64,000 nt of DNA from Candidatus Bathyarchaeota archaeon (GCA_963832745.1 CAWHVC010000004.1:64001-128000), one strand, 5' to 3'. Shown: positions 10,740 to 60,770, numbered from the stretch's first letter. The notes: generated by a model from the sequence alone, not told the origin. Numbers and translations are program-made.

Positions 10740-10813
10740 GAGTTTGGGGCAAAATTTTTTAATAATCGTAAACTTCGCTATTAATCAGTATCAGACTTTC
10801 TGGATGTGTTAAT

Positions 10814-12007: not shown

Positions 12008-12055
12008 CCATTTTTATTTTTTCCTTTTTTTGTTTTAGAAAGCGTTAAAACCATC

Positions 12056-34856: not shown

Positions 34857-34874
34857 GCGAGAAGAAAGTTCAAA

Positions 34875-36446: not shown

Positions 36447-36451
36447 CATAA

Positions 36452-37422: not shown

Positions 37423-37437
37423 GGAGAAATTAAAACC

Positions 37438-38289: not shown

Positions 38290-38305
38290 GTCAACACTGA
38301 TTGAC

Positions 38306-39526
38306 ATGAAAGTTGCTTTTCTATTGATGCATCCTTTTTCTGAATCTATGGGCTCAGTTGTAAGAGTGCGAGAGCTTGCTTTAGCACTTGAAACGAAAAG
38401 TGTAGAGTCGTACATTTTTACGCCGTATGAGCAATCTTTCGATTTGTCAACAAATGTTCATGTAACCTCATTGAGTAGTTTTATGAATCGTTTTGGGGTT
38501 TCCAGTAAAATCTATAATCTTTCAAAAGCGTTGTATTACAACCAAGCTTTTCCAAGCATCTTTTCGAAGTTTACTTCTAACTCTAACATTGTAGTCGCTA
38601 AAATTGTTAATAATATAGCTAAGATGATTAAGGATGAAGCGATTGATATTATACAAATAGAACAGGACGCAGCATTACCCTTTGCCTTAGGCTTAAAAGA
38701 AAAAACAGAATTGCCTGTTGTAGTTGATGTGCACAATATTTCTTCCGAAGAATTGGTGTCTGTCGGTTTACTTGAAAGAAACAGTAAAAAATATGCAGCG
38801 CTTCAGCAGGCAACCAAATTTGGGCTTTCTACCGTTGACCATGTGATTGTTGTAAGTGAAGTTATGAAAGATTATGTTACTGCCAATTATGGCCTGAGCA
38901 GAAAAAATGTTTCAGTGGTTCCCCCTGGAGGAAGATCAAACGTTGAATGTCTCAGCGGCGTTAAACGTGGTCTTCCACCTAAGGTGGTTTATGCTGGTCT
39001 AGTAGCGTCTCGTGAGCATGTTGATCTTTTCGTTAAAAGCATCCCTGTCGTGCTAAGTAAGCATCCAGATGCAGAATTTTATATTACTAAAAAAGGTGAA
39101 GATATCCACTGTATTAAGAAATTAGCTCAGAATTTACAAGTGAAACCAAATTTTTTCTGGTTCAATAAGTATTCAGAATTGAACAATTTCTTATCGTCTT
39201 GTGATGTCGGCGTTTTACCCTCCTCTTCCGATCTTGCGAGGCGTATGGGAACACCTGCAAAACTATTCACCTATTTATCTGCAGGGCTTCCTATAGTAGC
39301 CAACGATGTTGGAGGATGGACTGACATAATTAAGAATTCCCATGTTGGCCTGTTAACTCCTGATGACCCTAAAGAGTTCGGCGCCGCAATAATAGACTTA
39401 TTAGATAACCCTCAGCATAGACAGGAGTATGCCCTTAACGGCTTAGAATTGATCGCCAGAAAGTATAATTGGGGCAAATCAGCGCAAATCCTACTTGATA
39501 CCTATTGCAATTTGTTAACTAATTGA
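38306..39526 (+). CDS. GT4 family glycosyltransferase
   Basis: PAKLFTYLSAGLPIVA, YNW. Confidence 0.9.
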   Translation: MKVAFLLMHPFSESMGSVVRVRELALALETKSVESYIFTPYEQSFDLSTNVHVTSLSSFMNRFGVSSKIYNLSKALYYNQAFPSIFSKFTSNSNIVVAKIVNNIAKMIKDEAIDIIQIEQDAALPFALGLKEKTELPVVVDVHNISSEELVSVGLLERNSKKYAALQQATKFGLSTVDHVIVVSEVMKDYVTANYGLSRKNVSVVPPGGRSNVECLSGVKRGLPPKVVYAGLVASREHVDLFVKSIPVVLSKHPDAEFYITKKGEDIHCIKKLAQNLQVKPNFFWFNKYSELNNFLSSCDVGVLPSSSDLARRMGTPAKLFTYLSAGLPIVANDVGGWTDIIKNSHVGLLTPDDPKEFGAAIIDLLDNPQHRQEYALNGLELIARKYNWGKSAQILLDTYCNLLTN

Positions 39527-39538
39527 CTGAAGATAAAG

Positions 39539-40558
39539 ATGGCTTCCAACATTTCCTTTAAGAAAGACTGTTTGCCCTTTGTGTCACTTATTATTCCAAT
39601 GAAAAATGAAGAGGCATACATTACTAACTGTTTAGAGTCTTTTGTTAACCAAAGTTATCCAAGGGATCATTATGAGATTTTAATAGTTGATGATCATTCA
39701 ATTGACAACTCTACCAAAAAAGTTGAAGCTTTGATTGATAGATATCCCGAGACAAGAATCACTCTTTTAACATCTGACAGAGTTGGTGTATCTAACGCCT
39801 ATAGAACCGGTATCGGTCTTGCAAAAGGTGTAATCATTTTACGCGCCACTGCGCATTTAATCGCGGAAAAGAATACTATGTTAGAATTGGTTACCAAGCT
39901 CTCGGATTTACCTAGCGAATATGTTGGTACCACTTGCCCCTTAGTGGTATACCCAAAAGATAAGACCTTTTCACGAGCGACAGTGGCTCTTCTTGCATCC
40001 TCACTGGGTGGTTATGGAACCTCTCATTATTCTCCCAAGCAATCAGGCCCTACTCGTGAGGGAAAAACGATTATGGCTTTGAGAGCCGACATTTTTGGCC
40101 TTATTGGCGGTTATCCTGAGGGTGACGATTCGGAATTGAATGCCTTAATTCAAAAGGCTGGTTATAAATTTTGGTTAGTGAAAGAAACACACGCATTTTA
40201 CCGATACAAGCATTTTGGGCTTGTTCGGCATTTTAAACGGATGTTTTCATATGGCGAATCAAGAGCTCGTGAGTTCAGAAAGCACAACTCTTCCAAGAAA
40301 TTGGTTTATATAATTCCTTCAATCCTTACTTTGTCAATATTATTTTTGTTTGCCTCATTGTTTTTCAATAATTGGCTTATTAGACTCATTGCTGGTTCGT
40401 TAATTGTGTCATACTTAATTATTGTCCTGGCATTATCTCTTTCTATTTCTCTAAAAAACCGTAGTTCTTCCTTTCTTCTCATCTTGCCAATAATCATGTT
40501 ATTGACTTATGTCGGATATGGTGCAGGCTTCCTTAAAGGGCTCTTTTTCCGCAGATAA
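39539..40558 (+). CDS. GT2 glycosyltransferase with C-terminal TM helices
   Basis: IIPMKNEE, VDDHSID, GDDSEL. Confidence 0.85.
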   Translation: MASNISFKKDCLPFVSLIIPMKNEEAYITNCLESFVNQSYPRDHYEILIVDDHSIDNSTKKVEALIDRYPETRITLLTSDRVGVSNAYRTGIGLAKGVIILRATAHLIAEKNTMLELVTKLSDLPSEYVGTTCPLVVYPKDKTFSRATVALLASSLGGYGTSHYSPKQSGPTREGKTIMALRADIFGLIGGYPEGDDSELNALIQKAGYKFWLVKETHAFYRYKHFGLVRHFKRMFSYGESRAREFRKHNSSKKLVYIIPSILTLSILFLFASLFFNNWLIRLIAGSLIVSYLIIVLALSLSISLKNRSSSFLLILPIIMLLTYVGYGAGFLKGLFFRR

Positions 40559-40586
40559 TCTCCCAATCCGCTTGATTGATGAAAAA

Positions 40587-41591
40587 ATGTCTGTGAGTAT
40601 TATAATAGTAAATTATAATGGCTTGCTTTATATGAATAAACTTTTAACAAGCCTTCAGAATCAGACTTATACTCATTTTGAGATTGTTTTGATAGATAAC
40701 GCATCAAGTGACGATTCTTTGAGGTTGGTAGATAAGTATGCAGAAATTTTATCTCTCAAGATTATCAAGAACAGAGTTAATGTTGGCTTTTGTGAGGCTG
40801 TTAATCAAGGATTAAACCAATCTAACGGCAAATGGGTTGTGCTTCTTAATAATGATACTTATCTTGATATTCATTGGCTTGAAGAATTAGTCAAAAGAGC
40901 CAATTTAGGCGATAAGCCTGTAGCAGTTGTTAGCCGCATACTTGACGAGGGTTCTAAATTGTCAATATATGGTAATAATTATGACTTTTACGGTGCTACG
41001 CTTGCACAGAATACCTTAAGCCGTGCCAATTTTTTTTACGGTTCTGGGGCATCTCTAATGGTTGAGCGAGAGGTGTTTAAAAAGATAGGTGGATTGGACT
41101 CTGCTTTATTTATGTACCAAGACGATCCGGATTTATGTTGGCGTTTAAGATTAATTAACCGTAAAATTGTGTGTGCCGACCGTTCAATTTGTTATCATAT
41201 GCAATCTTCAGGGACTGTCCTGGTATCTAACATGAGTATGCCCGTTTGGAAGTTCTATTTCGCTCACCCTCGAAACCGCATTCGAGTATTGACCAAGAAT
41301 TATTCAGGTCTAAATATATTGAAACGCTTGCCTCAAGTGGTTGTTTTGATTGAATTTCGTGCAATCCTTCTTACAACTGTGAATAAGAACCCAAATTATT
41401 TGAGTGCAGTAATGAAAGGTTTCGTGTGGAATCTTCGACATCTTAGTGAAACATTAAAGCAACGGCATATTATTCAGCACTCTCGACGAGTGACTGACGG
41501 CGAAATAGAAAGTTTTATGCAACCTTATTCGATTGAGCTTTGGGGTTTTCGAAATTATTCATTACAAACAAAAAACTGCGAAGTTAAGTGA
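40587..41591 (+). CDS. GT2 glycosyltransferase (rhamnosyltransferase-like)
   Basis: IIVNYNG, IDNASSD, LLNNDT, FMYQDDPDLCWR; start most likely ATG 40587. Confidence 0.85.
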   Translation: MSVSIIIVNYNGLLYMNKLLTSLQNQTYTHFEIVLIDNASSDDSLRLVDKYAEILSLKIIKNRVNVGFCEAVNQGLNQSNGKWVVLLNNDTYLDIHWLEELVKRANLGDKPVAVVSRILDEGSKLSIYGNNYDFYGATLAQNTLSRANFFYGSGASLMVEREVFKKIGGLDSALFMYQDDPDLCWRLRLINRKIVCADRSICYHMQSSGTVLVSNMSMPVWKFYFAHPRNRIRVLTKNYSGLNILKRLPQVVVLIEFRAILLTTVNKNPNYLSAVMKGFVWNLRHLSETLKQRHIIQHSRRVTDGEIESFMQPYSIELWGFRNYSLQTKNCEVK

Positions 41592-41600
41592 TATTCAAAG

Positions 41601-42560
41601 ATGATACAAGGAAAGCTTCCTAGTATAATCATTCCCATGTTAAACGAGGCTGAACATGTTGAGAAATTATTAGATAGTATATTGGAACAAACTTACAGGC
41701 CATTAGAATTACTCTTAGTTGACGGTGGATCAAACGATGGGTCCACTGAGATTACTCAAAAATATTCAACGCGTTTTATAGATTCAAGCATTGATATGCA
41801 AATATTTGATGAAACAAAGTTTTCGGGGTTTTTAGGTCCAGCGCATGCTCGTAACGTAGGCATTTTAAATTCTTTGGGAGAATGCCTCCTTTTTATAGAT
41901 GCAGATTTTCTATTATCCGATGACTCAATTGTCAAAAAGGTTATGGCTGCCTTAGAAGTCAATTCTGCCGTAGCGGTTGAAATAAAACCTTTAATTGACA
42001 ATTTTGTGGAAGAACAAGTGGCAATGGACGATTATAACACAAAATACCATAAGACTATACATTATTATTTTGCGCTTCAAAAAAGCGCGTTAGAGGGTCA
42101 GTTGTTTGATGAGCATCTAGGGTTTGGCGAAGACTCCGACTTCTTCGAACGCATAAATGCAAAGCCAATTCTAATAGATGCTACGCTTAGTAGGCATTAC
42201 TGCCATTCATTAAGTGAATATAGCAAACAGTGGCGTTGGTATGGTAAAACAACTGTTCCCCTATTAAGAAAGTATTCTTATAATCCAAAAACGATTTTGA
42301 ACACTGTTGTTTTGTTAGCTCCTTTTTTCTTATTGATATGCGCTGTTTTGATAGGTCTCTTTGAAATCAAATTTAGTATTGCTTTAATTGTGCTCTATTT
42401 TATGTTTATAGCACTTAGATTCTGGAGGTCTCCAGCTAAAACGCTTTCAAGATTTATGTATTTAATGTTTGGAACAATCTTTCGTTCATATTTCTACGCT
42501 GTTGGACTCTGGTTGTATCTGATAAAGCCGCATATAGGGCTAAATAGGCAACGCAGCTAA
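41601..42560 (+). CDS. GT2 glycosyltransferase
   Basis: IIPMLNE, VDGGSNDG, ARN.G, IDAD, GEDSDF. Confidence 0.85.
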   Translation: MIQGKLPSIIIPMLNEAEHVEKLLDSILEQTYRPLELLLVDGGSNDGSTEITQKYSTRFIDSSIDMQIFDETKFSGFLGPAHARNVGILNSLGECLLFIDADFLLSDDSIVKKVMAALEVNSAVAVEIKPLIDNFVEEQVAMDDYNTKYHKTIHYYFALQKSALEGQLFDEHLGFGEDSDFFERINAKPILIDATLSRHYCHSLSEYSKQWRWYGKTTVPLLRKYSYNPKTILNTVVLLAPFFLLICAVLIGLFEIKFSIALIVLYFMFIALRFWRSPAKTLSRFMYLMFGTIFRSYFYAVGLWLYLIKPHIGLNRQRS

Positions 42561-42675
42561 ATTGATTCCATTAATAAGGAATAAATAGTTGGCTTAAAAA
42601 AGAGTTTGAAGATAATGGTAAATGGGACTATCATAAGCCTTTTTAGTATATTTGCAACTTGAGTAGTGATTTGTC

Positions 42676-43590
42676 TTGAACGAAGTCACTGATTATTATT
42701 CATGCTTAGAAAAAAAGGCAAAATTTATAATCGTTACATGCACCAAGAATGAAGAAAGCATGTTACCCCTTCTTAGTGCTTCTATCTGTAACAGTAATAT
42801 CTTGCCTATGCTTTGGGTTATTGCAGATGGCGGAAGTACGGATTCCACAGTTAAATTAATTCAGGAAAATGAACATGAATGTCCCTTCGTAAAAGGTTTC
42901 TTAATTAAAGATGAACATATCTTGCCCATTGAAAGATATGGTTTTACTGTACGAAAAGGCTTTGACTATGCTGAACGAATTTGTAAAGAAAAAGGATGGG
43001 CTTACGATTTTCTTTGTTTGGTAGATGTAGACGTTATTTTTCCAAAAGATTACTTCACTGCTTTGCTTAACGAATTCAGCAATGACCCCAAACTAGGTTT
43101 AGCAAGCGGAGCTTTCTGCGACGAACATAAAAATTTAGTGTTGAAAAACAAATTTAACGAGCCTAAAGGTCCAATATTAGTTTTTCGAAAGGAATGCTAT
43201 GAGGATATTAGTGGTTTTCCTAATGTGGCTTCGCCTGATACAGTTTCTATCTTAAAAGCTAAAAATAGAGGTTGGACTGTAAAAGAATTCCCTAATATCC
43301 GTGCAGTTCACAGGAGGGAATTTGCCAGTAAGAAAGGTCTTTGGAGGGGCTATTTTATGAGTGGAAAAACGAATTACTACTTAAATTATCATCCAGTTAA
43401 CGCTTTGTTAACTAGTTTGTACTATTTAGTTTTTAAAAGTCATAGATACATAGGACTCGCTTATTTGTTAGGCTATATAACAAGTGCACTTTCTAGAGAG
43501 CAAAAAATAAGCGACCCTGAGGTAAAAAACTATTTTTGGTTAAGTTTTTACCGGCTTACTTTGAAAGTTCTATTAAAAAAGGCAAGTTGA
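42676..43590 (+). CDS. GT2 glycosyltransferase
   Basis: KNEE, ADGGSTDST, VDVD, DPKLGLASG. Confidence 0.85.
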   Translation: MNEVTDYYSCLEKKAKFIIVTCTKNEESMLPLLSASICNSNILPMLWVIADGGSTDSTVKLIQENEHECPFVKGFLIKDEHILPIERYGFTVRKGFDYAERICKEKGWAYDFLCLVDVDVIFPKDYFTALLNEFSNDPKLGLASGAFCDEHKNLVLKNKFNEPKGPILVFRKECYEDISGFPNVASPDTVSILKAKNRGWTVKEFPNIRAVHRREFASKKGLWRGYFMSGKTNYYLNYHPVNALLTSLYYLVFKSHRYIGLAYLLGYITSALSREQKISDPEVKNYFWLSFYRLTLKVLLKKAS

Positions 43591-43599
43591 TAGTTTCTA

Positions 43600-44877
43600 A
43601 TGAATAGCGCTAATTCTTTGAGAATTCTGTTTATAGCTGATGAAAGTACGCATATTGCTATCTTTCATAAAATTATAGTTGAATTAAATAAAATAATGCC
43701 TGTATGGTTTAAGATAATATATTCAAATAGCCTGTCAACCAATCCTCTTAGTATCAGGTTTTACTGTAAATATGAACTTAAAAATTACAAAAAAATTATC
43801 GAGAAAGTTCATCCTGACTTACTAATAGTAGCTAACGATCAAGGAATAAAAACTGCATTTATTAGAATTTGTAAGCTAAAAAAAATTCCTTCGATAGTTA
43901 TACAGGATGGTCTTCTCATCAATAATGAGCCGAAGGGAATTAAGCGCTTTCTTGCTTACCAAAATTACTTACTTTGGAGTGTATTCTCACGTTTAACCGA
44001 AATTTCAGTAATAGCCAAGTTGTCGTTTTTGGTTGGACGCCAGTGGTGCATTCCCTCCTGGGGAACTGGTAATGCTGACTATATCACGGCTATGGGTAAC
44101 TATTCAAGGCAAGTTCTGATATCAAGAGGTGTTTCTTCTGATAGAATAGTTGTTACTGGTTATCCTTTACTTGATGACTTTTATTTTAGCAATTTGGAAA
44201 CTGAATTCACACGTTTTAAGTGGCAAACAGCCGAAGGCAATCAGCCTGTAGTGCTTTTATTTACTCAGCCTTTGGTTGAGGATGGTTTGTGGGCTTTGCC
44301 GTTGCGATCCTTGCATTTTAATTCAGTAGTTGATGCTGTTAAACATGTTAATGGTAAGCTTGTTGTGAAAGTGCATCCTAGAGAAGATATTAAAACTTAC
44401 CAATTGTTAGCCAGTAAATATAGTGGAGTTTCGATAGAGGTAGTAAAAGAGTTTAGCGTTGATACTTTGATTTTGGACTCCGATGTTGTGGTAACTGTTA
44501 GTTCAACGGTTGGGTTGTGGGCAATAGCTTATAATAAACCGCTAATAGTTGTAAACTATTTTCCGCAAGGAAACACAGAAAACTTGCTTAAGAACTTGGC
44601 AACTACCATAAACGACCCACAAGAATTATCCGGAGTTTTAAGCCAGATTTTAACCGATAGGATCTATCGAGTAAAATTGATAGAAAAACAAATGTGCCAC
44701 ATTCAAGACCACTTATACCGTTTAGATGGCTGCGCCTGCCAACGGATTGCAAAACTAATACTATCTATCACTAAAAACAAGCTCGCCCTTGAACAGAAAA
44801 CCCCCCAACCCCTTAAATGCTGTGACCCTTTTAACCTTTTTAAAGGTCGTTTTTCACTAACAAGGTACAATAGGTAA
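43600..44877 (+). CDS. GT-B fold protein (UDP-GlcNAc 2-epimerase/capsule-biosynthesis-like); candidate nonulosonate transferase
   Basis: IQDG, VTGYP..D, VKVHPRE, TVSSTVG..A..KP, DG.A..RI. Confidence 0.65.
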   Translation: MNSANSLRILFIADESTHIAIFHKIIVELNKIMPVWFKIIYSNSLSTNPLSIRFYCKYELKNYKKIIEKVHPDLLIVANDQGIKTAFIRICKLKKIPSIVIQDGLLINNEPKGIKRFLAYQNYLLWSVFSRLTEISVIAKLSFLVGRQWCIPSWGTGNADYITAMGNYSRQVLISRGVSSDRIVVTGYPLLDDFYFSNLETEFTRFKWQTAEGNQPVVLLFTQPLVEDGLWALPLRSLHFNSVVDAVKHVNGKLVVKVHPREDIKTYQLLASKYSGVSIEVVKEFSVDTLILDSDVVVTVSSTVGLWAIAYNKPLIVVNYFPQGNTENLLKNLATTINDPQELSGVLSQILTDRIYRVKLIEKQMCHIQDHLYRLDGCACQRIAKLILSITKNKLALEQKTPQPLKCCDPFNLFKGRFSLTRYNR

Positions 44878-44886
44878 AGAGATGGC

Positions 44887-47800
44887 ATGAAAAGAACGAC
44901 CTATTGGATAATACTCAGTGGAATAGCTGCTTTATTTATACTGTTTTTACTAGGGTCATTTCCGTTAGCATTATGCTTTTCAATACTTTTCTTTTTATTA
45001 TCAGTCACTATCGGCAAGATGCTTTTTACTAACAACGACACTGTTAACGGTATTACGCTTCCAAAAGTAAACGTTAACAAAATTTTTGAAAGCATCCCAT
45101 ATCTTTTGGCAATAGTCGGTAGCATTTTAATTGCGTTCTCGCCTCCATTAAATTTGACCCTTGCCAATAATTCGGTTTTACTTACTTTCTCTTCTCTTTC
45201 AACCGTTTTAATTGTAAAAATACTTTTCAGTCTTTTTCTTATGAGTTTTTTCCCTGGATACATTCTATGTAGACGATTCTTTAACTCTTTTTCAGGAGTT
45301 GAGAAAGCCGGTTTAACTCTTGCTTTAAGCTACTGCTTTAATGCAATCTTAGGGCTACTCCTATCAAGCCTTAACGTATTATCTCCCGTTTCATACTTAA
45401 TTTCCACATGGCTTTTTGTCATAATAATCCTGATAACTAACATTTCAAAAAACTTAGTGCATACGGCTCAAGTATCCTCACAGTATATTCTACGTTGGGA
45501 AACTATTTTGGTACTTTTAACAAGCATAACATTGTTGATTGGAAGCTATGGCATGGCAGTATCCATTGGCCCAATAAGCGGATTGTTCGGTGGCGATCCT
45601 GCTAGGTATATGGTTTATACAAATCAGTATTTTCAGTTAAACATAGCTTCCTATATACCTTGGTTAAGCTCTTACATGCTTATAGGCACGGTTCTAACTG
45701 GTCTGCCTTTGATTTATGTCTATTCTATTATTCAATACTTAGTTCTGCTAGTACCATTCTCCGTTTACTTCTTCATTAAAACATTATTTCCCCAACAAAA
45801 AAAGGCTGCAAGTATAAGTGCATTCATGGTTTCGGTGTTATATGGCTTAAGCAGTTTGCCATTTGTAGCAAGACTTGCAGGGGCACCCTCTCTTTTCACT
45901 GGTTATCTTAACGGTGAGGTTCAATCAACTCTCAGCCAATTCATAAAAATTTTTTGGGCAAACACTCAAAGTTATGTATTATGGAATAGGACAATCGAGT
46001 ATGGCTTAGCTTTTCTAGCATTGGCTTTGCTTTTCAACTACCTGCATAACGATAAGAGAAACGGAAACTTTTCATGTCTTTTAGTAGGCATTTTATTTCT
46101 TAACGCTGCACTCTTTACGCATAGTGCATTTCTAGCCATTCCAGTTTTGAGTACAATTCTTATTTATTCCTTACTTCAGCCCAGTTGCAAGCGTAAACTG
46201 CTTAACATCTCTATTGTATTTGCACTGTTTTTCCTTTCTTTAATTTTAATAACTAACTCGTCATTTTTAAACCAGTTATTAACTCTCGTCGAATATTCCT
46301 TGTTTTCTATTGGAGACTCCAATGCTATACAGAAGTTAGGTATTTTGATGTTAATTTTGTTTCCTACATTTATATTAATACTTTTTAGAGATGAGCTCAA
46401 AATAAAAATTAACTTTTCAAGTTTTCGAAAGGTTAAAAAATTCCATTTGACTATGCCCAACAAGATCCAACGTTGGATAATAGCGTTGCTATTTGTTTCA
46501 TTGTCACTTTTTCTTTGCTATTTAAACTATGATAATTTGTACACTAATACAATGGCTTCTGCTTCAAATCCTTGGTTTGTCTGGGTTGCCTACTTTGGTT
46601 TACAAATAGCTTTAATAATAGTATACCTTCCAATAGTATTTAGAAAATCTGAGCGACGGTCAATATTTTTTTTGTTATCTTTCATCTTTTCGATAGTGGC
46701 TCTATCAGTATTATCATGCCTTCAAATAGTTGTTTTCGTGTCAGGCCTTGGTGCCATGTATCTGTTTTTTATGGCGTATCCGTTAAGTTGTATAGCTGGT
46801 ATAGCTTTAAGTATCTACTCTTCAAGCTCTACTAACCCTCCCAAAGAGCCAACAAAAAATAAACCTTTTAGAATAGGTTTATCTAAAAACAAGCGAAAAC
46901 TATTCTATACCATCGTCACTACTTTTTTACTATTATCAATTGCTGCCTCATTTCTTTCTTACGCTTACTCAGTGTCAATTGATTACCCTCAAGATTTGAC
47001 TCGTCCACGCTTATCAACTTCTGATGCAACGATTCTCCAATTGATGTACAATTCTCTTCCCAAAAGTTCCGTAATAATAGCTCTCTCTGAAAATAGTTAC
47101 CAAATGCTATGTAGTATTTTACCCAACAAAATTCTGCCAATCTATCTAAACATAAACGAAGGCCCTGCGGGTGGTACATGGGCAAGAAACGCAGTTTTGG
47201 AATCTAGTTTACCTGAAGCTGTATTATCAAGTTTGTACCAGTTAGGTGCTACAGATGTTTTTGTGAGTTCAGCTGATGCTTCGTTATTTTCTAATTCAAA
47301 TACTACGTTTGTCTTTAGTAAATGATTTTCCGATAAAATATTCATCAGATAATGTAAAATTGTATAAAATTCCATCTATTCTGTATAGTGACTCAAACTA
47401 TCATTTGGTTTCTGGATTAAATGGTTATCCCTCAAAACAGCCTGTATTCATTGATGTTGACCCTTCCCCAACTGTTATTTTTCCTACTAATCAAAGTACA
47501 TTTTGGGAAGTTACTGCCTTAGATGAAGGAAAAGGCTCTATAGGGTTGCCTGTACTTTCAGAGGATTCTGTAGAGGCATGCGGGAATAGGCGTTTGATGA
47601 TAAGCGTTGGTTCCGGAACTTATTCGAGATGGCAAATTAAACATTCATTTAATGTATCTCAAGATTGGTCACAGTATGACTACCTAGGTTTCTATTGGTT
47701 TGGCACAAATACTAGTGCAACCCTGAGTCTAGGGGCTAACAGTCAACTTAGTGGCTATAATTATCAAAGATATGATTTTGTAGATAATTGGATTGGTTGG

Positions 47801-49229
47801 AAACTGCTTGTAGCCCCACTGAATAAACCGGATGAATCTAGTGCAGGCTGGGTCCGGACGTCACAAGAATAAACAAGATAACTATCGGATTTTGGAACTC
47901 CAGAAACGTTAACGGCACTTTTTCGTTAAATAATGTTACACTAGGTATAGGTCGTTGGATTGAACAGGATTCGTTTGTTCCATCTGACCAATTCCTTACC
48001 AAGTTGCTAGTGAGGGGTTCAGTGCCTTATTCAATAACTCCCGAAAATAGTTTGAATACTCTAGACTCTAACAATGTCTATTTTTTCGCAAATAACCCTT
48101 GTTATGTTTCTTCAGGGCTCTTTAGTAATTTAACCTATTTTGTTAAAAATGGGGCTAATGTCATTTTTACAAATCCTAATTTTGAAGTTCCATGTGCTGA
48201 TTCTACAATTGAGTATTCAATTCCAAATTTGATGAATTACACTTTGACGCTGAATCCCTTGCATGAAAAGTCAATAACTCTAAATAGTAATAGCCAATCA
48301 ATTAATCTCCTTGTTAATGACGCCTTATCGATTGTGTTTTGGGAACTAAGCAGGAATAGAAACAATTGCAAGTTTTAACTTTTCAGACGGGACTAGCGCT
48401 CCTTATATTCTTAGGGAAAAAATTGGCAGTGGATCAATTATATTTGTCGATTTTTCTGTTATATCAGGTCTTTCAATGACTTCTAAAAATGAAATATTAG
48501 ATTTTACTATAGCAATATTGTTAGAAATAATTCCGCCGGCGAATGATTCATTCAATTTTCAACAATTGTCAATTCCTTCACAGGTTTTTAGTGATAAAGC
48601 TTTCAGTGGTACGACCTTTGATTTGTGGAGCAGCCCGGACTTACGCAATAAGTTAACAATATGATAGTGATGTAATAATTCAGGGATCTTTTTCTGTTTC
48701 TTCTGGTTGTATGAAGATGAATTCTGATAGTTTCTATATTGACAAACTACTAATAACTCAAGGTAACAATAGCTATTTTATCGACGATGAATCGGTACGT
48801 AATATTAGCATCTATGGGTCTGGCCAAATATCGTTTAATTCCTCAATTGCAGAATTACACAATTGGCCAACGGGTCAATATAGCATACTTAACGTTACTG
48901 ATTATAGTTCTTCATTAGTTGTTATTACTTGTTACAATGCGACTATTTCGTATGAAACTCAATCAAATGAGACAATATCTTATAGAGGCAATTTTAATCT
49001 TACTTATATTTCAACAGGTAATCCAATATTTATTCGAGCTGAAAAACCTATTTTTGAGATAAATGGGAGTGTTGATGGACGCATGCATGGGGGTTTAATT
49101 TATGATAATTATTACATATACAAGCGTGCAGAACAAACTTCAATTAAAGGTAATTTTTCATTAGTTATACAGTATTCTTCTGGCATTATTTTCGCTGAAA
49201 TGAAAGATGTATGCAATATATTCAATTAG
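44887..49229 (+). CDS. Very large polytopic membrane protein with a long extracellular C-terminus, split by several frameshifts
   Basis: Contiguous ORFs 44887, 47276, 48004, 48476 and 48711 in shifted frames; many TM helices followed by beta-rich domains. Confidence 0.55.
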
Positions 49230-49393
49230 TGAATCTTCTAATGACTGCTCAATAGGGTACTACACTGTTATCAGAAAAACAAATTAGCCAACCTTCTTAG
49301 CCAAGTATTCTCAAAATATATAACTTGCAAAGATAGTTTATCCCTCATGTTAGGTAGCAGATACGCATTTGACGGTCAAACGGTAATAAACCT

Positions 49394-50310
49394 TTGAAAT
49401 CGCAAGTCAATTCAAAAGAGGAATTACTTCAAAACATAACTGTAGGAAAATATCGGCGCGAAGAGATAAAATGTGAATGCGATTCAAACTCTTTTGAATT
49501 ACTATCTGAAAAAGACCGGTACGGTATTCCAGTGAAAACTGTTATCTGCAAAAAATGTGGGCTCATCCGCCAAAATCCCCGTTTAAATGCAGAATCATTA
49601 AGCGATTTTTATGCTAAGCTATATAGGGGTTTGTATGAAAGTTCATCTGTTTCTGCGTTATTTAACAACCAATTACATAGAGGAAAAAAATAATAAAGTG
49701 GATAAACCAAAAATTGGGTTACCTTCCCGAAAAAGTTATTGAAATTGGTTGTGGAGCTGGGGGCATTCTTAAAGCATTTCAGAACATGGGTTGTAAGACG
49801 TTAGGTATAGATTTTAATCAAAAATATCTCGATTTTGGAATTGCAAACGGTTTAGATTTGCGACTTGGTGGCACAGGTGTATTAAAAGACTATACCGCTG
49901 ACCTAGTTATTCTTTCCCATGTTGTTGAACACTTTTCAGACCTGAACAAAGAATTAAGTGCTATTGGTAACTTGCTAAAAGCATCTGGTCATTTGTACGT
50001 GGAAGTTCCTGGAGTTTTTAATTTACGCCCTTATTCTTTTGATTTCCTTCGAAGCCTTCAAAATGCCCATAACTACTATTTTACGCTAGGGACTTTAACG
50101 CAAGTTATGGCGAAATATAGTTGGAGTCTAAAATATGGCGACGAAAGGGTTCGCTCACTATTTATTTTAACTAATAAGAAAGACGACATATCGCAAAACC
50201 ATTACTTTGTAACTATGCATAAACTAAATCAATACGAAAGAATACGTCCCTTATTGCGACCGCAATTAAGCAGTTTGATGAATAACCTTTTGTGGTTAAT
50301 CGATATATAA
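49394..50310 (+). CDS. Class I SAM methyltransferase with N-terminal Zn-binding motif; frameshift in poly-A near 49684-49690
   Basis: CECD..CKKCGLIRQNPR; EIGCGAG, SHVVEH, YVEVP. Confidence 0.8.
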
Positions 50311-50404
50311 TTTATTTAAAAAACGCTTGTAGTTAAGCCTTTCATTTTTTCAATATTTTTAAATATCATAGAATAGCCTACGTAACCTAAGCGGTCGTTT
50401 CACT

Positions 50405-51580
50405 GTGTATAAAGGTCATTACATCATATCTATTATTCCTGCACGTGGGGGAAGTAAAGGTGTTCCGCGCAAGAATATCAAAGAGTTATGTGGCAAACCT
50501 TTGGTTGCTCATTCGATAATACACTCTTTGCACTCTCAGTATGTTGATAAGACTATTGTTTCGACTGAGGATCTAGAAATTGCCGATGTTAGCCTAAAAT
50601 ATGGTGCTGAGGTAATTTTACGACCGCAGGAACTGGCTACCGATGAAACTCCGACTGAACCCGTTATGATCAATGTTTTATCTCAACTCGCTAAGGATAA
50701 TATTGTTCCTGATTATGTTGTTCTGTTACAACCTACTTCACCCATCCGGTTGTCTGCTGACATTGATCAAGCAATTAGAAAAATTATTGATGATAAAGCT
50801 GATTCATTGATTAGTGTCCGTGAAAACAGTTCCTTCTTCTGGTCTAAGGAAAACGAACCTTTAAATTATGACTATCAAAAAAGGCCACGCAGGCAAGATA
50901 AGCAATGGGAACTAATTGAGAATGGTTCGATATACATAACCAAAAGAGAGATTTTAGTTAATGAAAAGAACCGGATAGGTGGGCGTATATTAACTTACCT
51001 TATGCCTGAATGGGCTTCATTTGAGATAGATACTGCCTTTGACTTTGATTTGATAGAATTTATCGCACGAAAATATTTTTCTAACTCTATTACTGGACTT
51101 GAAGGCATAAAGCTTGCTATTTTTGATGTTGATGGTGTTTTTACCGATGGCTCTGTTTATTTGGGTGAAAATGGTCAAGAAATGTTAAAGTTTTCTAGAG
51201 TAGATGGCAAGGGCATTGAATTGTTACAGAGAACAGCTATCGAAATTGCTGTAATAACATCGGAAGATAACGCTATAGTTAGAGAAAGAATGAAGAAATT
51301 GAGTATTAATCGTGTTTATACTGGTATAAAAGATAAAAAATGCATTTATGACTTATTAAAAAAAGAACTAAACATAACAGATGAGGCAGTTGCCTACTGT
51401 GGTGATGATACAGGTGATTTAGTTCCAATTAAAAATGCAGGATTCACTGCTTGCCCTCGTAATGCCGTTGATGTAATAAAGCATGAATGCATGTACGTTT
51501 CATCCCTTACCGGTGGTTCAGGTTTTGTTCGGGAAATATGTGACTTAATCATTGCTTCTAAGGAGAAATCTAAAGAATGA
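50405..51580 (+). CDS. neuA: Acylneuraminate cytidylyltransferase fused to a KdsC-like HAD phosphatase
   Basis: IPARGGSKGVPRKN, LQPTSP.R, ENGSIY, EIDT..D; then FDVDGVFTDG, GDDTGD, GG.GFVRE. Confidence 0.9.
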   Translation: MYKGHYIISIIPARGGSKGVPRKNIKELCGKPLVAHSIIHSLHSQYVDKTIVSTEDLEIADVSLKYGAEVILRPQELATDETPTEPVMINVLSQLAKDNIVPDYVVLLQPTSPIRLSADIDQAIRKIIDDKADSLISVRENSSFFWSKENEPLNYDYQKRPRRQDKQWELIENGSIYITKREILVNEKNRIGGRILTYLMPEWASFEIDTAFDFDLIEFIARKYFSNSITGLEGIKLAIFDVDGVFTDGSVYLGENGQEMLKFSRVDGKGIELLQRTAIEIAVITSEDNAIVRERMKKLSINRVYTGIKDKKCIYDLLKKELNITDEAVAYCGDDTGDLVPIKNAGFTACPRNAVDVIKHECMYVSSLTGGSGFVREICDLIIASKEKSKE

Positions 51581-52452
51581 ATTTAAAAATAGGAAACAAA
51601 GAAATTTCTAATAATAGTCCAATTTTTTTCATAGCTGAAATTGGCATAAATCATAATGGTGACATTGAAAAAGCAAAAGAGCTAATTGATTTAGCTAGTT
51701 TCTGTAAATGCGACGCTGTTAAGTTTCAAAAAAGAACCCCTGAACTTTGCGTCCCCGAAAAACAAAGAGACACCCTTAAGGACACTCCATGGGGCAAAAT
51801 GACTTATTTTGACTATAAAAGAAAAATCGAATTTGAGGAAGAAGAATATAAAATAATTGATGATTACTGTAAAAGGAAAGACATAGTTTGGTTTGCTTCA
51901 CCTTGGGATACGCCCAGTGTCGATTTTTTGGAAAAGTTTGATGTACCTTGTTATAAAATACCTTCAGCAATGATTACAAACAAGGCTCTTTTGCAAAAGA
52001 TTAAAGATACCGATAAACCGATTTTTCTATCTACGGGAATGAGCACTGTAGATGAAATTGACAATGCGATAAACGCTCTTAGCGGTCAACCCATAGTTTT
52101 GATGCATTGTAATTCTTCGTATCCTTCTGATGCTTCAGAACTAAATTTGCGAGTGATCGAACTGTATCGGCAAAAATACTCCGATTGTATTATTGGCTAT
52201 AGTGGTCATGAAAAAGGTTACGCTGCATCCCTCGTTGCTGCAGTCTTAGGTGCAAAAGTTGTCGAACGACATATTACCCTTGATAGAACAATGTGGGGGA
52301 GTGACCAAGCAGCAAGTTTAGAACTAGATGGGTTACGGCGGTTAGTTAGAGATTTATCTTCTCTTGATATGTGGTTGGGTGATGGTGAGAAAAAAATTTA
52401 CCCTTCTGAACTTCCGATAAGAGCAAAACTAAGACCGTCCAATGATACTTAA
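51577..52452 (+). CDS. neuB: N-acetylneuraminate/nonulosonate synthase family protein lacking the C-terminal antifreeze-like domain
   Basis: IAEIGINHNGD, AVKFQKR, STGMS, HCNSSYP, GYSGHE, ERHITLD. Confidence 0.92.
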   Translation: MNLKIGNKEISNNSPIFFIAEIGINHNGDIEKAKELIDLASFCKCDAVKFQKRTPELCVPEKQRDTLKDTPWGKMTYFDYKRKIEFEEEEYKIIDDYCKRKDIVWFASPWDTPSVDFLEKFDVPCYKIPSAMITNKALLQKIKDTDKPIFLSTGMSTVDEIDNAINALSGQPIVLMHCNSSYPSDASELNLRVIELYRQKYSDCIIGYSGHEKGYAASLVAAVLGAKVVERHITLDRTMWGSDQAASLELDGLRRLVRDLSSLDMWLGDGEKKIYPSELPIRAKLRPSNDT

Positions 52453-54332: not shown

Positions 54333-54725
54333 CTAGTAAGCCGAAGAATCAAATATTTTGGAAGTAAAAAGTTCAATTTCTTTTTTGGATTCAAGAATGT
54401 TAGTAAGCAAAAGTTTGCCCTTGGGTGTCAAAGAGTAAACAGTCTTTGCGTTTTCATCCAGTTTCCTTTCTATAAACTGATCCTCTTCAAGAGAATGCAA
54501 AACACGATAAATTTCACTTACATTAAGTCTGATACCTTGCTTTTGTAAAATAATTTTTAGAATATCATAACCCGTTACTGGTTTCTTCTTGTTTAAAATC
54601 ATTAGACTTACGATGTTCAAATAATTTTTTAGAATTTTAGTCTGTATTTCTTTTGATTTTTTAGAGGCACCCTGTTTTGAAGATGTCGTTGTTTCAAGAC
54701 ATTTTTGATCAAATATGAGCGTCAA
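54333..54725 (-). CDS. PadR family transcriptional regulator
   Basis: GYDIL..I..K.GI.L..SEIY..LHSLE...I........YSLTPKG. Confidence 0.85.
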   Translation of the reverse strand: MTLIFDQKCLETTTSSKQGASKKSKEIQTKILKNYLNIVSLMILNKKKPVTGYDILKIILQKQGIRLNVSEIYRVLHSLEEDQFIERKLDENAKTVYSLTPKGKLLLTNILESKKEIELFTSKIFDSSAY

Positions 54726-55500
54726 GCTTCTCTATTACCCCCAGTAAGTCCATCACAAAGGGATGCTGCCCTTTTTCGATAGATAAGATACAGGTGCGTT
54801 TTGTTTGAAGAACATCACAGTAACAGGGAACTGCACCTATAACCGGTCGCTTGAAGGTTGACTGTGCTTGGGTTATCGCATCTGTTTTCCAATCACTTGG
54901 TAAATCAATGGCTGAAGGAAAAACTTTGTTGAGCAATATGACAGCTTTCTTTTCTATCGCATCATAAAGATCAACTAGGAGACTTTTAGTGCCTTGAGTG
55001 TCCAATGAATCAAGCGTTGTAACAATTATTGATAAATCTGAACTTATTGCAGCATTCACCGATGTATACTGGAAACCGGGACTGGTATCCAATATGCAAT
55101 AATCAACATTCATTTCATTGAATAATTGCGACCGTAGAGCGAGAAGTCTTTTAACTGCTGAAACTTCCCAAGCTCGACTCTTCTCAGTAATACTGCGAAT
55201 AGCCCCACCGTCAGGGTCTGAAAAACCAACCAATAATCTGCCACTTAATTTATACCTCGAGGACAAATCGACCGTTGCAACCTCAGCAGGACATCGACCG
55301 TCAAAATAAGAATTCAAGTAACAATCAATAGGTAACGCTTCCCCCCGTGAAAACACGCCTGCTAAACTTGGCGCTCTAAAATCAAGGTCAAGAAGTGCAA
55401 CATTCAAGCCTTTTTTTGCCATCAATGCAGCTAGATTTGTTGACAGAAGTGTTTTACCTGTCCCGCCCCTAGAAGAGTGAATCGAGATACACTTGCCCAT
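54709..55500 (-). CDS. MinD/ParA family ATPase
   Basis: SSRGGTGKT deviant Walker A, LDLDFRAPSL, LDTSPG, LNK. Confidence 0.9.
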   Translation of the reverse strand: MGKCISIHSSRGGTGKTLLSTNLAALMAKKGLNVALLDLDFRAPSLAGVFSRGEALPIDCYLNSYFDGRCPAEVATVDLSSRYKLSGRLLVGFSDPDGGAIRSITEKSRAWEVSAVKRLLALRSQLFNEMNVDYCILDTSPGFQYTSVNAAISSDLSIIVTTLDSLDTQGTKSLLVDLYDAIEKKAVILLNKVFPSAIDLPSDWKTDAITQAQSTFKRPVIGAVPCYCDVLQTKRTCILSIEKGQHPFVMDLLGVIEKLDAHI

Positions 55501-55502
55501 TA

Positions 55503-55934
55503 TTATTCCTCCTTGGATGCTTCAATGTAAAAATAAACTTCATGACCAACTCTTTTTTTCTTAAAAAAACCCAGACGGGCAAGCTCATTTGCAGCGGCGC
55601 TTTCTACAGCACGCATTCTGTTAGTTTCTTTCGCTAAATCATCAGCCGTAGCCTGCTCAAGCTTGTACAAAACCAACGCTGTTTTTCTTAGAGCCGCAGG
55701 TAATGACAGAAGCGCCATTGAATCAGGCTGGATTTCTATTTTTCCTTTTTTCCCTTGTAATCCAGTGGGCATTCTTTGCAAGATGGTCTCATTAATTTCT
55801 AGAATTCGTTCATTTATTTTTATTAATTTGTTTAATCTATCGTTAATCTGGTTAAGTACACTCACTGTTTGAAAAAGTGGTTGTTCCGACGTTTGTTCTG
55901 AACTCGAATCTTTTGTTTCAGGTGTGATTTCCAT
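55503..55934 (-). CDS. Coiled-coil plus winged-helix DNA-binding protein
   Basis: ATADDLAKETNRMRAVESAAANELARLGFFKKKRVGHEVYF; N-terminal heptad repeats. Confidence 0.75.
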   Translation of the reverse strand: MEITPETKDSSSEQTSEQPLFQTVSVLNQINDRLNKLIKINERILEINETILQRMPTGLQGKKGKIEIQPDSMALLSLPAALRKTALVLYKLEQATADDLAKETNRMRAVESAAANELARLGFFKKKRVGHEVYFYIEASKEE

Positions 55935-56048: not shown

Positions 56049-57035
56049 ATGAACGCTCGCGAGCAACTTCAAAACATTCTTGAAACTTATGGCGCACACA
56101 ATGCATATCAGGCAACAAAAACCCTAACAACCTTAGACGTTCAAGAAAATCTCAAACCAATTTTTAATTACATATCAAAAACATGGCGCGACCCTTTAAC
56201 ACCGGCAATGATGAATCTATCCTGTAAAGTTGTTGGTGGCGAACCTGAAGAAACTCAAAAATACGCAATAGCTGTAAGCCTGCTAAACCTGAGCATGAGA
56301 ACCTGGGATGACGTTATAGACAAAACAACCGTAAGAAGCCTTAAAAAAACCACAGTTGGGGAAATCGGAGAGAAAAACTCCATCATCATTGGCGGGTTAA
56401 TATCTGCTAAAGCATTTCTTACCCTAAACCAAACAAGAATAAACTTAAAAAAAGAAGAAGCAATAGCAAAAATCTTATGGACCTATTTATCCACGATGTC
56501 AGAAGCCGAGATTATTGACAATGGCATTAAACCAGAATTTTATTTACCAAAAAATAAACTGCAAAAAATCAAGACTGAAGCAATAGGCTTAGAAACATGC
56601 CTTAGCATCGGAGGCATTGTTGGCAATGGCTCTGAAGAAGAAATAAACGCTTTAGGGAACTATGGTAGAATTCTTGGAACACTACTTGAATTATGGAAGG
56701 ATCTGCTAGTTTCTTTAAACCTGACAATGGAATTAGAACAAAAAATCCGGAACAAAAAATTGCCCTATTTTATCTTAAGAACCAAAAAATACAGTCTTGA
56801 AACACGAGAACTGCTCAAAAAAATGTCAAAAAACGATATTGAAGGCCAGGATATAGGAATCTTGGTTGAAAATGTTCTAAAGAATAACACAAAAATAATT
56901 AAAACTAAAGTTGAATCATTAACAACCCGTGGAATAAATCTCCTTGAACCATTTAGAGGCTGTGAAGAAAAAGAGAATCTGAAAAAAATTCTAAGCATTC
57001 AACCAAAAATATTTGATGAATGCTTAAACGGTTGA
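56049..57035 (+). CDS. Class I isoprenoid synthase/polyprenyl synthetase-fold protein with a degenerate second Asp motif (ComQ-like)
   Basis: WDDVIDKT..R first motif, KIKTEA, LGNYGRILG; second motif reads LWKDLLV instead of DDxxD. Confidence 0.8.
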   Translation: MNAREQLQNILETYGAHNAYQATKTLTTLDVQENLKPIFNYISKTWRDPLTPAMMNLSCKVVGGEPEETQKYAIAVSLLNLSMRTWDDVIDKTTVRSLKKTTVGEIGEKNSIIIGGLISAKAFLTLNQTRINLKKEEAIAKILWTYLSTMSEAEIIDNGIKPEFYLPKNKLQKIKTEAIGLETCLSIGGIVGNGSEEEINALGNYGRILGTLLELWKDLLVSLNLTMELEQKIRNKKLPYFILRTKKYSLETRELLKKMSKNDIEGQDIGILVENVLKNNTKIIKTKVESLTTRGINLLEPFRGCEEKENLKKILSIQPKIFDECLNG

Positions 57036-57043: not shown

Positions 57044-57262
57044 TTAATATTCCTCAGGCCATTTTTGAGGACTTACCGACATAATGACGGAAACAACTGA
57101 GCTTATGTGAGCGCTGGGTATTTTGGCTTTTCTGCAAACTTTAACTAACGAATTTTTGTCGTTTTTGTTTACTGCAGCTTGAATTTCGCTTGAAAACTCT
57201 GGCTTCGATAATGTTTGAAGACTACTGGCAACGCCACTTATTTTTGTATTTAAATTTATCAT
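57044..57262 (-). CDS. 72-aa peptide, candidate RiPP/pheromone precursor
   Basis: SD-like GGTGG upstream; helical Nif11-like leader; C-terminal SPQKWPEEY. Confidence 0.65.
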   Translation of the reverse strand: MINLNTKISGVASSLQTLSKPEFSSEIQAAVNKNDKNSLVKVCRKAKIPSAHISSVVSVIMSVSPQKWPEEY

Positions 57263-57356
57263 TTAAACCCACCATATTTTAAATCATTTGATTCTGTTTT
57301 TAAGCTTTCTTAACAATTTAAAATACTTTAAATGCTCTTAGACGCTATCTCTAAAG

Positions 57357-58591: not shown

Positions 58592-59515
58592 CTATTTCAG
58601 CCTGAACAGGGAAACCTGCTTGATACTTTCCAGTCTACATATCCATTGCAAAGCACGTTCTACGCCCAAAGCAAAACCTGCCTGAGGTACACTACCAAAC
58701 CTTCTCAGATCCAAGTACCACTTTTGAGCTTCAGGGCTAATCTCAAGCTCTTTCAACTTATTTATTACGACATTTTTTTGTCTTAACATTTCTCCGCCGC
58801 TGGCAATTTCACCATAACCACCCGGAGCTATTAGGTCACAAGACAAGGTTAATTCTGGTTTGCGAAAAACAGGTTTATGAAAATAGTTTTCGCCATTTAG
58901 TGGAAACTCGGTGATGAAAAAAGGTTTTGTAAACGTCTTGCTAAGTTCACTTTCTTGAGACCAATCAATAGTCTCGCCCCAGAAAACCTTGAATCCTAAT
59001 TTTTGCAGTCTATTAATTGCTTCATCATATGTTAATCGACAAAAGGGTGGCTTAACTAGTTTTAACGTTTCAACCAAACTAGAGCCATTTAAAAATAATA
59101 ACTCTTCTGAAACATCTTCCAATAACTTGGAACATACAAAAGAAATCATTTTCTCCTGAAAATCCATAATTTTTTCAAAAGTAAAATTTAACGCAGACAC
59201 TTCCACTCGCCAAAACTCAATCAAGTGCCTATCCGTGTCATGTTCCGGTCGAAAAGTTGGTGATACAGTATAAATTTTATTAAACATCTCAAGGAAGCGG
59301 TCTGAGTAGGGCTGTAACCTTCCACTTAAATCCATTTTTCTATTTCCATAAGAAACCTCAAAACTAGCCTTTCCCTCAATAATTGGCACTAACAAGGGCG
59401 CTTGAACTTCTGTGAATTCTTGAGCTCCTAACCAGAATCTTGTAGATTCTAACATTTTTGCTCTTACTTTCAAAATTGCTCGATAGCGCTTCACGTCAGC
59501 GTAATCCAGTGTCAT
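58592..59515 (-). CDS. Class IIb aaRS paralogue (AsnRS/AspRS catalytic domain only, no anticodon-binding OB fold)
   Basis: FTEVQAP motif 1, PTFRPE..RHLIEF motif 2, DLIAPGGYGEIASGG, GFALGVER motif 3; only 307 aa. Confidence 0.85.
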   Translation of the reverse strand: MTLDYADVKRYRAILKVRAKMLESTRFWLGAQEFTEVQAPLLVPIIEGKASFEVSYGNRKMDLSGRLQPYSDRFLEMFNKIYTVSPTFRPEHDTDRHLIEFWRVEVSALNFTFEKIMDFQEKMISFVCSKLLEDVSEELLFLNGSSLVETLKLVKPPFCRLTYDEAINRLQKLGFKVFWGETIDWSQESELSKTFTKPFFITEFPLNGENYFHKPVFRKPELTLSCDLIAPGGYGEIASGGEMLRQKNVVINKLKELEISPEAQKWYLDLRRFGSVPQAGFALGVERALQWICRLESIKQVSLFRLK

Positions 59516-59979: not shown

Positions 59980-60146
59980 TCAATTTTTCACATACCACGC
60001 TTTTGGTTCTTTAGCTTTTAAAATTTAGTAACAAAATTAACTATTAAAAAAAATATAACTTGCCTTTTGTTGACTGCAAAATTAGGCTAATCGAGCTACC
60101 GCATCCCGTGGAAACTGGGAATGAGCAGATTTATCTGGAAGTGTGT

Positions 60147-60159
60147 ATACATTATGTAT
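60147..60159. promoter_or_regulatory. Palindromic operator upstream of vapBC
   Basis: ATACAT-T-ATGTAT, 12 nt before ATG 60171. Confidence 0.5.
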
Positions 60160-60170
60160 GTGTGGACTGC

Positions 60171-60398
60171 ATGGCAAGACAAATTTCAGTCTCAAACGAA
60201 GTCTATGAACTCCTTTTGGAACGAAAAGGCAAAAAAAGCTTTTCACAGGTAATTAAAGAAAACCTTTGCATCAAAGAGGAAAAAGTTGACATCATGAGTC
60301 TAGCAGGCATCTTAAAAGATGACAAGGAAGAGCTTGAACGATTAAAGCAGCAAATAGCCGCTGAAAGAGAGGCAAATTACGGAAGGACATTTGAGTGA
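60171..60398 (+). CDS. vapB: VapB-type antitoxin (DUF217-like)
   Basis: RQISVSNEVYELL..K.KKSFSQVI; coupled to the PIN gene. Confidence 0.85.
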   Translation: MARQISVSNEVYELLLERKGKKSFSQVIKENLCIKEEKVDIMSLAGILKDDKEELERLKQQIAAEREANYGRTFE

Positions 60399-60770
60399 CT
60401 TTTCTTGATACAAGCGTCATAATAGATTTCTTGGCAGGAGACCAAAAAATTGTTGCATTAATACAAGAAATCTTAAAAAAAGAAGAGGTGAAAACCACAA
60501 CAATAACCGAGTACGAGCTGCTTAGGCATAAGACTAAAATAAAAAAACAAGCAGCTCAACGATTCCTCTCCGGAGCAACCGTCTGCTCTTTCGACCGAAC
60601 TGCCGCCCAAAAAGCTGCTGCTCTTTTTGAAGAACTCAGAGAAGCTGGAAAAATGATTAACGAAAACAGATTTGCTTATTGCAGGCATTTCCCTTGCTCA
60701 CGATGAGGTTTTACTAACAAGAGACCAAAAACTATCCAATGTTAACAAAGATAACATAAAAATGGTCTAA
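60395..60770 (+). CDS. vapC: VapC PIN-domain toxin; frameshift near 60667
   Basis: FLDTSVIIDFL, ITEYEL; shifted frame DLLIAGISL..LLTRD to TAA 60770. Confidence 0.88.

Follow-up and report, generated by a model that had tools for sequence, protein, structure and literature searches.

A conserved small protein of Bathyarchaeia as a plausible substrate of an adjoining, ComQ-like trans-isoprenyl-diphosphate-synthase paralog

[quoted passage not shown] According to that source, all characterized trans-IDS-like transferases target tryptophan, the second aspartate-rich motif is repurposed for tryptophan recognition, and a conserved glutamine directly upstream of this motif is tied to recognition of the indole; Ord1 acts on free tryptophan (PMC13290415). 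[quoted passage not shown] The second aspartate alone is preserved in the second motif, and the form NDxxx or GDxxx is required (PMC5331326). The proteases that cleave ComX are given as unknown (PMC10853753). PalQ, found by AlphaFold complex prediction, prenylates the conserved C-terminal tryptophan of PalX, a peptide with a folded NHLP leader (PMC10853753). Replacement of this tryptophan abolishes PalQ activity (PMC13290415), and so do C-terminal extensions, the tryptophan being the very last residue of PalX (PMC10853753, PMC13290415). Our literature searches, taken at the level of search results, returned no archaeal counterpart of these systems.

The window analyzed here, a stretch of 64,000 nucleotides from a Bathyarchaeota genome, contains a small gene for a protein of 72 amino acids, named P0001 (Table 1). 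Its position and its translation had both been given exactly in a preliminary description made from the sequence alone, and ORF calling found no overlapping ORF of at least 40 aa on either strand. The ORF is a genuine gene and more than a chance reading frame, since five close homologs, 28 cluster representatives and four genomic loci keep the frame open. The close homologs, retrieved by a word-indexed search, share 51–79% identity with P0001. HMMER, run exhaustively on 1.84 billion cluster representatives, returned 29 matches at E ≤ 0.001, 28 of them real; the remaining one, P0033, is a repetitive protein of 1101 aa and was rejected as spurious. A genome scan with P0001 as the single query, which reaches close relatives only, yielded four loci (L001 to L004), all in metagenome-assembled genomes of Bathyarchaeia. 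Between L002 and L003 the gene shows a pN of 0.123 and a pS of 0.663 (dN/dS about 0.08) and is thus under purifying selection. Six-frame translations searched with the family HMM contained one copy each for the window and for the four loci, and no paralogs. The family is hereafter represented by an alignment of 37 sequences, from which P0033 and a second protein, P0013, were left out.

Homologs therefore exist in number, and neither a PDB profile search nor Foldseek matched P0001 to a known folded housekeeping protein, two points on which the preliminary description had offered itself for rejection. Searches of P0001 against Pfam, NCBIfam, PHROGs and PADLOC yielded no meaningful match (the best was Trans_coact, E 0.095), the ESM Atlas held no usable match, and tblastn against plasmids and phages found none. 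The family profile reached only E 0.51 against PDB sequences. Foldseek comparison of the predicted structure with the PDB gave no match at E ≤ 0.001, the top one being PEX14 with E 2.7. Longer or fused forms of the family were not found by the searches, which is weak evidence. Two further identities were considered and dropped. With a peak 19-residue hydropathy of 1.17, P0001 is neither a membrane protein nor a signal peptide, as hydropathy analysis detected no transmembrane-grade segment and no signal peptide. An acyl-carrier-like protein charged by the neighboring aminoacyl-tRNA-synthetase-core paralog was rejected because an invariant serine is absent.

Table 1 Features of the small gene and its surroundings, in window coordinates
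Feature	Position	Strand	Basis
Three co-directional genes: 143-aa protein, MinD/ParA-like ATPase, PadR regulator	54333..55934	-	4/4 loci, PadR 3/4
Divergent trans-IDS paralog, 328 aa	56049..57035	+	PF00348 40.8 bits, AlphaFold2 fold
First Asp-rich motif of the paralog, D87-D88-V-I-D91	56307..56321	+	DDxxD 49/49; D87, D88, D91 invariant in 52 sequences
Pseudo-second Asp-rich motif, K217-D218-L-L-V221	56697..56711	+	only second Asp kept
Small gene, 72-aa protein P0001	57044..57262	-	ORF and translation; stop codon included
Flexible C-terminal tail VSPQKWPEEY, codons 63-72 (predicted)	57047..57076	-	non-helical, pLDDT blocks 67 and 57
K67-W68-P69, proposed modification site	57056..57064 (W68 = 57059..57061)	-	conservation in the 37-sequence alignment
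Predicted four-helix domain, codons 1-62	57077..57262	-	AlphaFold2, 10-residue pLDDT blocks 71-88
AT-rich 94-bp spacer between small gene and MFS gene (divergent)	57263..57356	.	read from sequence
MFS-type membrane protein, 408 aa	57357..58583	+	PF07690 31.2 bits, below gathering score 33.4
Class II aaRS catalytic-core paralog (AsnRS / asparagine synthetase A-like)	58592..59515	-	4/4 loci

P0001 is predicted to consist of a helical head followed by a loose tail. The AlphaFold2 model, computed from the 37-sequence alignment (mean pLDDT 80.5, pTM 0.61), places helices at residues 4–18, 21–32, 36–45 and 50–62. The last of these corresponds to the hydrophobic helix ISSVVSVIMSV noted in the preliminary description, and the polar tail mentioned there is non-helical in the model. 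Within the helical domain, L15, Q16, L18, A30, D35, C43 and I48-P49 are conserved. P49 and P69 are the only residues invariant in all 37 sequences, L18 is the sole residue in the 36 rows having that column, and A30 and C43 occur in 36 of 37 each. Position 68 is aromatic throughout, with tryptophan in 27 members and tyrosine in 10, so that the invariant tryptophan anticipated earlier was not borne out. K67 is kept in 30 of 37 members, and the aromatic residue is the fifth from the C-terminus in 29. It is followed by proline, two variable residues and a last residue that is mostly hydrophobic. Entropy at the last three positions (2.7–3.6 bits) is among the highest in the protein, and the linker preceding K67 carries both insertions and deletions. 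An invariant proline next to an aromatic residue at a fixed distance from the C-terminus is characteristic of a terminal recognition motif. Conservation is of similar degree in the leader and in the tail, which is also what an ordinary folded protein would show.

These data bear on the leader-core layout that had been proposed for P0001. A four-helix domain, a low-confidence tail and a C-terminally fixed aromatic-proline motif agree with it, while the assignment of the leader to Nif11 is not supported (see below). The proposed core of about 5–9 aa corresponds roughly to the flexible tail of 10 residues, in which true variability is limited to the final three positions. Pherotype-like variation of the flanks was likewise confined to these three residues, K67 and P69 being conserved.

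The gene convergent with that of P0001, 8 bp away and absent from the preliminary description, encodes a divergent member of the trans-IDS. Its match to PF00348 is weak, no NCBIfam synthase model comes near its cut-off (the best gives 66.8 bits where 468 are required), and the AlphaFold2 model of the enzyme (pLDDT 93.7) shows a confident trans-IDS fold. TM-scores of 0.78–0.80 to the trans-IDS structures 5ze6 and 1wy0 and of 0.73–0.74 to Ord1 show no greater similarity of the enzyme to Ord1 than to ordinary synthases. There are 48 homologs with at least 39% identity, after which identity falls sharply to 24%; JGI labels these relatives 'geranylgeranyl pyrophosphate synthase'. The stretch K217-D218-L-L-V221 aligns with DDVLD within QIWDDVLD of 1wy0, and a DDxxD second motif is present in none of 49 enzyme homologs. 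At the position of its second aspartate an acidic residue is found in 48 of the 49 (Asp in 47, Glu in one), and in 47 the residue before it is K, N or H; the first residue of this pseudo-motif is mostly lysine. The exceptions are one KE and the EE of P0084, an outlier at 24% identity. Upstream of the motif, E214 (at least 90% conserved) replaces the canonical glutamine seen in FQIWDD of 1wy0. WRDPLTPA takes the place of the IPP-binding loop GKRxRP, where a canonical paralog in L004 reads GKRWRPA. An assignment as canonical short-chain trans-IDS (GGPP synthase) was rejected, as the second DDxxD and the GKRxRP loop are absent and the scores lie below the cut-offs. The L001 enzyme lacks even the single aspartate of the second motif (KG). 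In that locus (enzyme L001:10222-11247(-), peptide L001:10004-10219(+)) a tyrosine peptide is paired with the KG enzyme, a single case among the genomic loci.

The canonical synthase of L004 (L004:3282-4349(+), PF00348 216 bits, with GKRWRP, DDIED and QDDVL) lies 6 kb from the divergent copy of the same genome, which reads NDFL for QDDVL. Since L004 also carries this canonical gene, the divergent enzyme is, judged by sequence, an extra paralog and not the housekeeping synthase of the lipid pathway. Domain scans of the ORFs in the window detected no other PF00348 gene. By its predicted fold, its retained first motif and its lost second motif, the enzyme shares three of four sequence and structure hallmarks of trans-IDS-like peptide prenyltransferases; the fourth, the upstream glutamine, is not found. 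The departures are glutamate for this glutamine and mostly lysine for the Asn or Gly in front of the retained aspartate. If the pair works as proposed below, the annotation as geranylgeranyl pyrophosphate synthase hides an enzyme family.

Another protein, P0013 (220 aa), starts with ~175 N-terminal residues of the enzyme family and, from a short shared EA-[VI]-D stretch on, continues as the ~45 C-terminal residues of the small-peptide family. Since enzyme and peptide genes lie on opposite strands in all five genomes, P0013 is probably a chimeric contig or a rearranged pseudogene; it was rejected as a Rosetta-stone fusion, a chimeric contig or gene call being likelier.

ComX is similar in length to P0001. 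Both are short ribosomal peptides with an aromatic residue, the candidate acceptor in P0001, a few residues from the C-terminus. In both systems the peptide gene adjoins a gene for a trans-IDS-derived enzyme that keeps the first motif and the second aspartate of the second, and in neither is there a Gly-Gly site or a dedicated protease gene found nearby. The differences are equally clear. Whereas comQ and comX overlap and are co-directional, the archaeal genes are convergent, and the block around them holds no two-component pair of the ComP/ComA type. The candidate acceptor is tyrosine in 10 of the 37 family members. Glutamate stands for the upstream glutamine, and lysine mostly occupies the position that is Asn or Gly in ComQ. 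Lastly, structure prediction gives P0001 a folded leader of four helices, and the host is an archaeon. The preliminary description had also suggested a comparison with ComX (PF05952, which we take to be the ComX Pfam accession). No ComX family was found by Pfam scans at E ≤ 10, either for P0001 or among the families shown for the 37 members, and the ComX pattern of an invariant tryptophan with variable flanks is not that of the P0001 family. Still, this remark proved a better lead than Nif11, because the adjoining gene shows the motif pattern of ComQ. The closest matches of the enzyme are archaeal GGPP synthases, and the NCBIfam scan returned no ComQ model; on these grounds it probably arose independently of ComQ.

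With PalQ/PalX of Paenibacillus alvei the pair has in common a folded leader, a terminal aromatic acceptor (proposed for P0001) whose distance to the C-terminus matters, and an enzyme of the isoprenoid synthase superfamily that is mis-annotated as a synthase. The PalX tryptophan is, in the sources cited above, the last residue, whereas usually four residues follow the aromatic residue in P0001. The PalQ cluster includes a histidine kinase, and the archaeal block does not. The NHLP leader is reported to contain beta strands (bioRxiv 10.64898/2026.10.04.756588), in contrast to the all-helical prediction for P0001. A further resemblance is to the eukaryotic CaaX box, in which the acceptor is likewise set a constant few residues in from the C-terminus, with a few variable residues and a hydrophobic end after it. 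The resemblance is by analogy one of logic only: the candidate acceptor is Trp or Tyr and not Cys, and the trans-IDS fold stands against an unrelated alpha/beta heterodimer.

The two genes belong to a larger block, which was delimited by BLASTP of the window ORFs from 45 kb onward against the ORFs of the four loci. Order and orientation are the same in all four: aaRS-core paralog, MFS gene, small gene, enzyme gene, gene of a 143-aa protein, MinD/ParA-like ATPase and, in three of the four, PadR regulator. The block proteins share 30–66% identity (PadR 29–36%), and genes outside the block are unrelated between loci. The 3' ends of peptide and enzyme genes abut or overlap in five of five genomes, at 37–51% identity. 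P0002 and P0037 derive from contigs of equal length (71,208 bp), which suggests a sixth co-occurrence. Conserved order supports the view of the block as a conserved module. Adjacency alone is nevertheless weak evidence, because the block also holds genes without an obvious tie to peptide modification, namely the aaRS-core paralog, the MinD-like ATPase and two regulators. One of the latter may be represented by the 143-aa protein, which has a weak C-terminal match to the Sta1 family of regulators. The aaRS-core paralog is a constant member of the block, lacks an anticodon-binding domain and falls below all NCBIfam cut-offs. Domain scans detected no histidine kinase and no response regulator in the block. 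In L001 an Rce1-like intramembrane protease of the CAAX type (CPBP; L001:16204-16905(-)) and an exosortase/archaeosortase-like protein (L001:6209-7270(+)) are encoded 3–6 kb from the module, each in this one of the four loci only. Rce1-like proteases trim prenylated C-termini in eukaryotes and are common in prokaryotes for other reasons.

Upstream of the small gene, GGTGGG lies 6–11 nt before the ATG, preceded by the TATA-like TTTAAAATAT; the corresponding regions are AT-rich in all four related loci. From its sequence the spacer would act as a promoter. The MFS protein beyond it has about 10–12 hydrophobic segments, is encoded divergently from the small gene in synteny in all four loci, and is a possible candidate exporter of a peptide product.

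We tentatively propose, at a little under an even chance, that P0001 is a ribosomal substrate of the adjacent enzyme and undergoes aromatic prenylation of the ComQ/ComX or PalQ/PalX kind in archaea. The proposal is made because the adjoining enzyme resembles the tryptophan prenyltransferase ComQ. From the gene family, the motif pattern, the synteny and the predicted fold we infer binding, prenyl transfer, processing and export as follows. The four-helix N-terminal domain would be a folded recognition (leader) domain that docks on the enzyme, and the flexible tail would bring aromatic residue 68 of K-[W/Y]-P into the active site. There the retained first Asp-rich motif, together with Mg2+, would bind and ionize an allylic diphosphate, and the former IPP and second-motif site, E214...[K/N/H]-D218, may accommodate the aromatic side chain. 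The prenyl group would end on the tryptophan (or tyrosine) of P0001. After trimming, the product might leave the cell as a lipopeptide that acts as a signal or antibiotic, with the MFS protein as a possible exporter; alternatively it might be kept whole as a lipid-anchored small protein. To our knowledge, no trans-IDS-like enzyme modifies tyrosine. Against prenylation stand the tyrosine at position 68 in part of the family, the glutamate in place of the indole-linked glutamine, the KG motif of the L001 enzyme, the lack of any special similarity of the enzyme to ComQ or Ord1 beyond the fold, and the fact that neither a Peptidase_C39 nor a histidine kinase gene was found beside the peptide gene. 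A bolder version, which we regard as quite unlikely, is a dedicated protein or peptide lipidation system of Bathyarchaeia that evolved, independently of ComQ, out of an archaeal GGPP synthase, recognizes a box K-[W/Y]-P-x-x-hydrophobic at the C-terminus and attaches the prenyl group to Trp or, in roughly one lineage in four, to Tyr. Its product would be the first archaeal prenylated peptide signal, exported by the MFS protein, or else a lipid-anchored four-helix protein.

Other observations that weigh against prenylation speak for P0001 as an ordinary small helical adaptor or regulator, whose K-[W/Y]-P-x-x-hydrophobic tail docks unmodified on a partner or a membrane while the enzyme has an unrelated job, e.g. 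as an IDS-derived terpene synthase or another small-molecule prenyltransferase. The genes are convergent and hence not co-transcribed like comQ-comX, the functions within the syntenic block are mixed, the helical domain is conserved over its whole length and as well as the tail, and an exchange of Trp and Tyr (27 against 10) is typical of an aromatic residue engaged in binding or packing. Moreover, the structural relative Ord1 is reported to use free tryptophan rather than a peptide (PMC13290415), and IDS-derived terpene synthases are on record (PMC6140472). Yet a mere adaptor leaves without account both the motif of the tail predicted to be disordered, which is the best conserved and fixed relative to the C-terminus, and the abutting 3' ends in five of five divergent genomes; nor did the ESM Atlas, the PDB profile search or Foldseek find a relative of known function by fold or sequence. 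We judge it somewhat unlikely. The conserved adjacency would also suit a non-catalytic partner or regulatory subunit that is bound by the enzyme and remains unmodified, as in heteromeric prenyl diphosphate synthases, and heteromeric trans-IDS with small subunits are among the structural neighbors of the enzyme (3aqb, hexaprenyl, and 9kp1, heptaprenyl synthases). Large subunits of such synthases keep both Asp-rich motifs for chain elongation, however, unlike the enzyme family with its consistently altered second motif, and nothing similar to P0001 was detected among solved structures, those of such small subunits included. A subunit role is accordingly improbable.

The Nif11-type leader recognized by eye in the preliminary description found no statistical support, and we consider a classical Nif11-leader RiPP precursor, with leader-dependent modification and cleavage by a C39 peptidase-transporter, very improbable. 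At E ≤ 10, PF07862 was neither among the Pfam matches of P0001 nor, in the scan of all 37 members, among the 25 families shown out of 32, each of the seven others matching at most one member. NCBIfam gave no match for P0001 either. Gly-Gly occurs in none of the 37 members, in agreement with the earlier remark that P0001 has no such site, L(X)4L is present in the last 30 residues of only three of them, and no window ORF scanned matched Peptidase_C39. What recommends a Nif11 leader is its architecture. The first structure of such a leader is reported as a tetrahelical bundle (residues 2–15, 17–25, 37–43 and 48–51) followed by disorder (bioRxiv 10.64898/2026.10.04.756588), which, compared by helix ranges and not by superposition, resembles the four helices and loose C-terminal region of P0001. 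The fourth helix measures 13 residues in P0001, however, against four in the Nif11 leader, the tail is only 10 residues long, and an enrichment of Nif11 leaders in cyanobacteria is reported (bioRxiv 10.64898/2026.10.04.756588). The structure 9ZN4 was not among the Foldseek matches of P0001, the PDB version searched ending on 2026-04-08; the RiPP precursor SonA (7lts_D) appeared at rank 22 with a non-significant E of 7.4. Nif11 membership of the family is hence not supported, although a distant relationship of the folds may exist.

P0001 is a real, conserved small protein, for which the role of substrate to a ComQ-like archaeal prenyltransferase of independent origin is plausible. If this were true, trans-IDS-based prenylation of tryptophan would extend to the archaea, and possibly to tyrosine, and an abundant, largely uncultured sediment lineage would hold a candidate for modified-peptide signaling or lipid anchoring. 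The automatic annotation of the enzyme relatives would then be corrected.

Several other features of the window and the loci were recorded. Radical SAM/SPASM proteins are encoded in the window at 2-943(+), at a distance of 55 kb from the peptide, and at L002:2676-3761(+), where the distance is 7 kb. Just outside the block, at 60060-60706(+), lie a VapB-like antitoxin and a PIN-domain toxin, the ORF of the latter being short-looking (103 aa). The window also contains a complete split set for non-homologous end joining at 9807-14396(+), in which the LigD primase-polymerase, an aldo/keto reductase with 4Fe-4S, Ku, an ATP-dependent DNA ligase and the LigD phosphoesterase are separate genes. A long co-directional surface-glycan cluster at 32644-52452(+) comprises many glycosyltransferases of families 2 and 1, an epimerase/dehydratase, FkbM-type and other methyltransferases, a polysialyltransferase-like protein, and a cytidylyltransferase with NeuB, indicative of a pathway for sialic or other nonulosonic acids.
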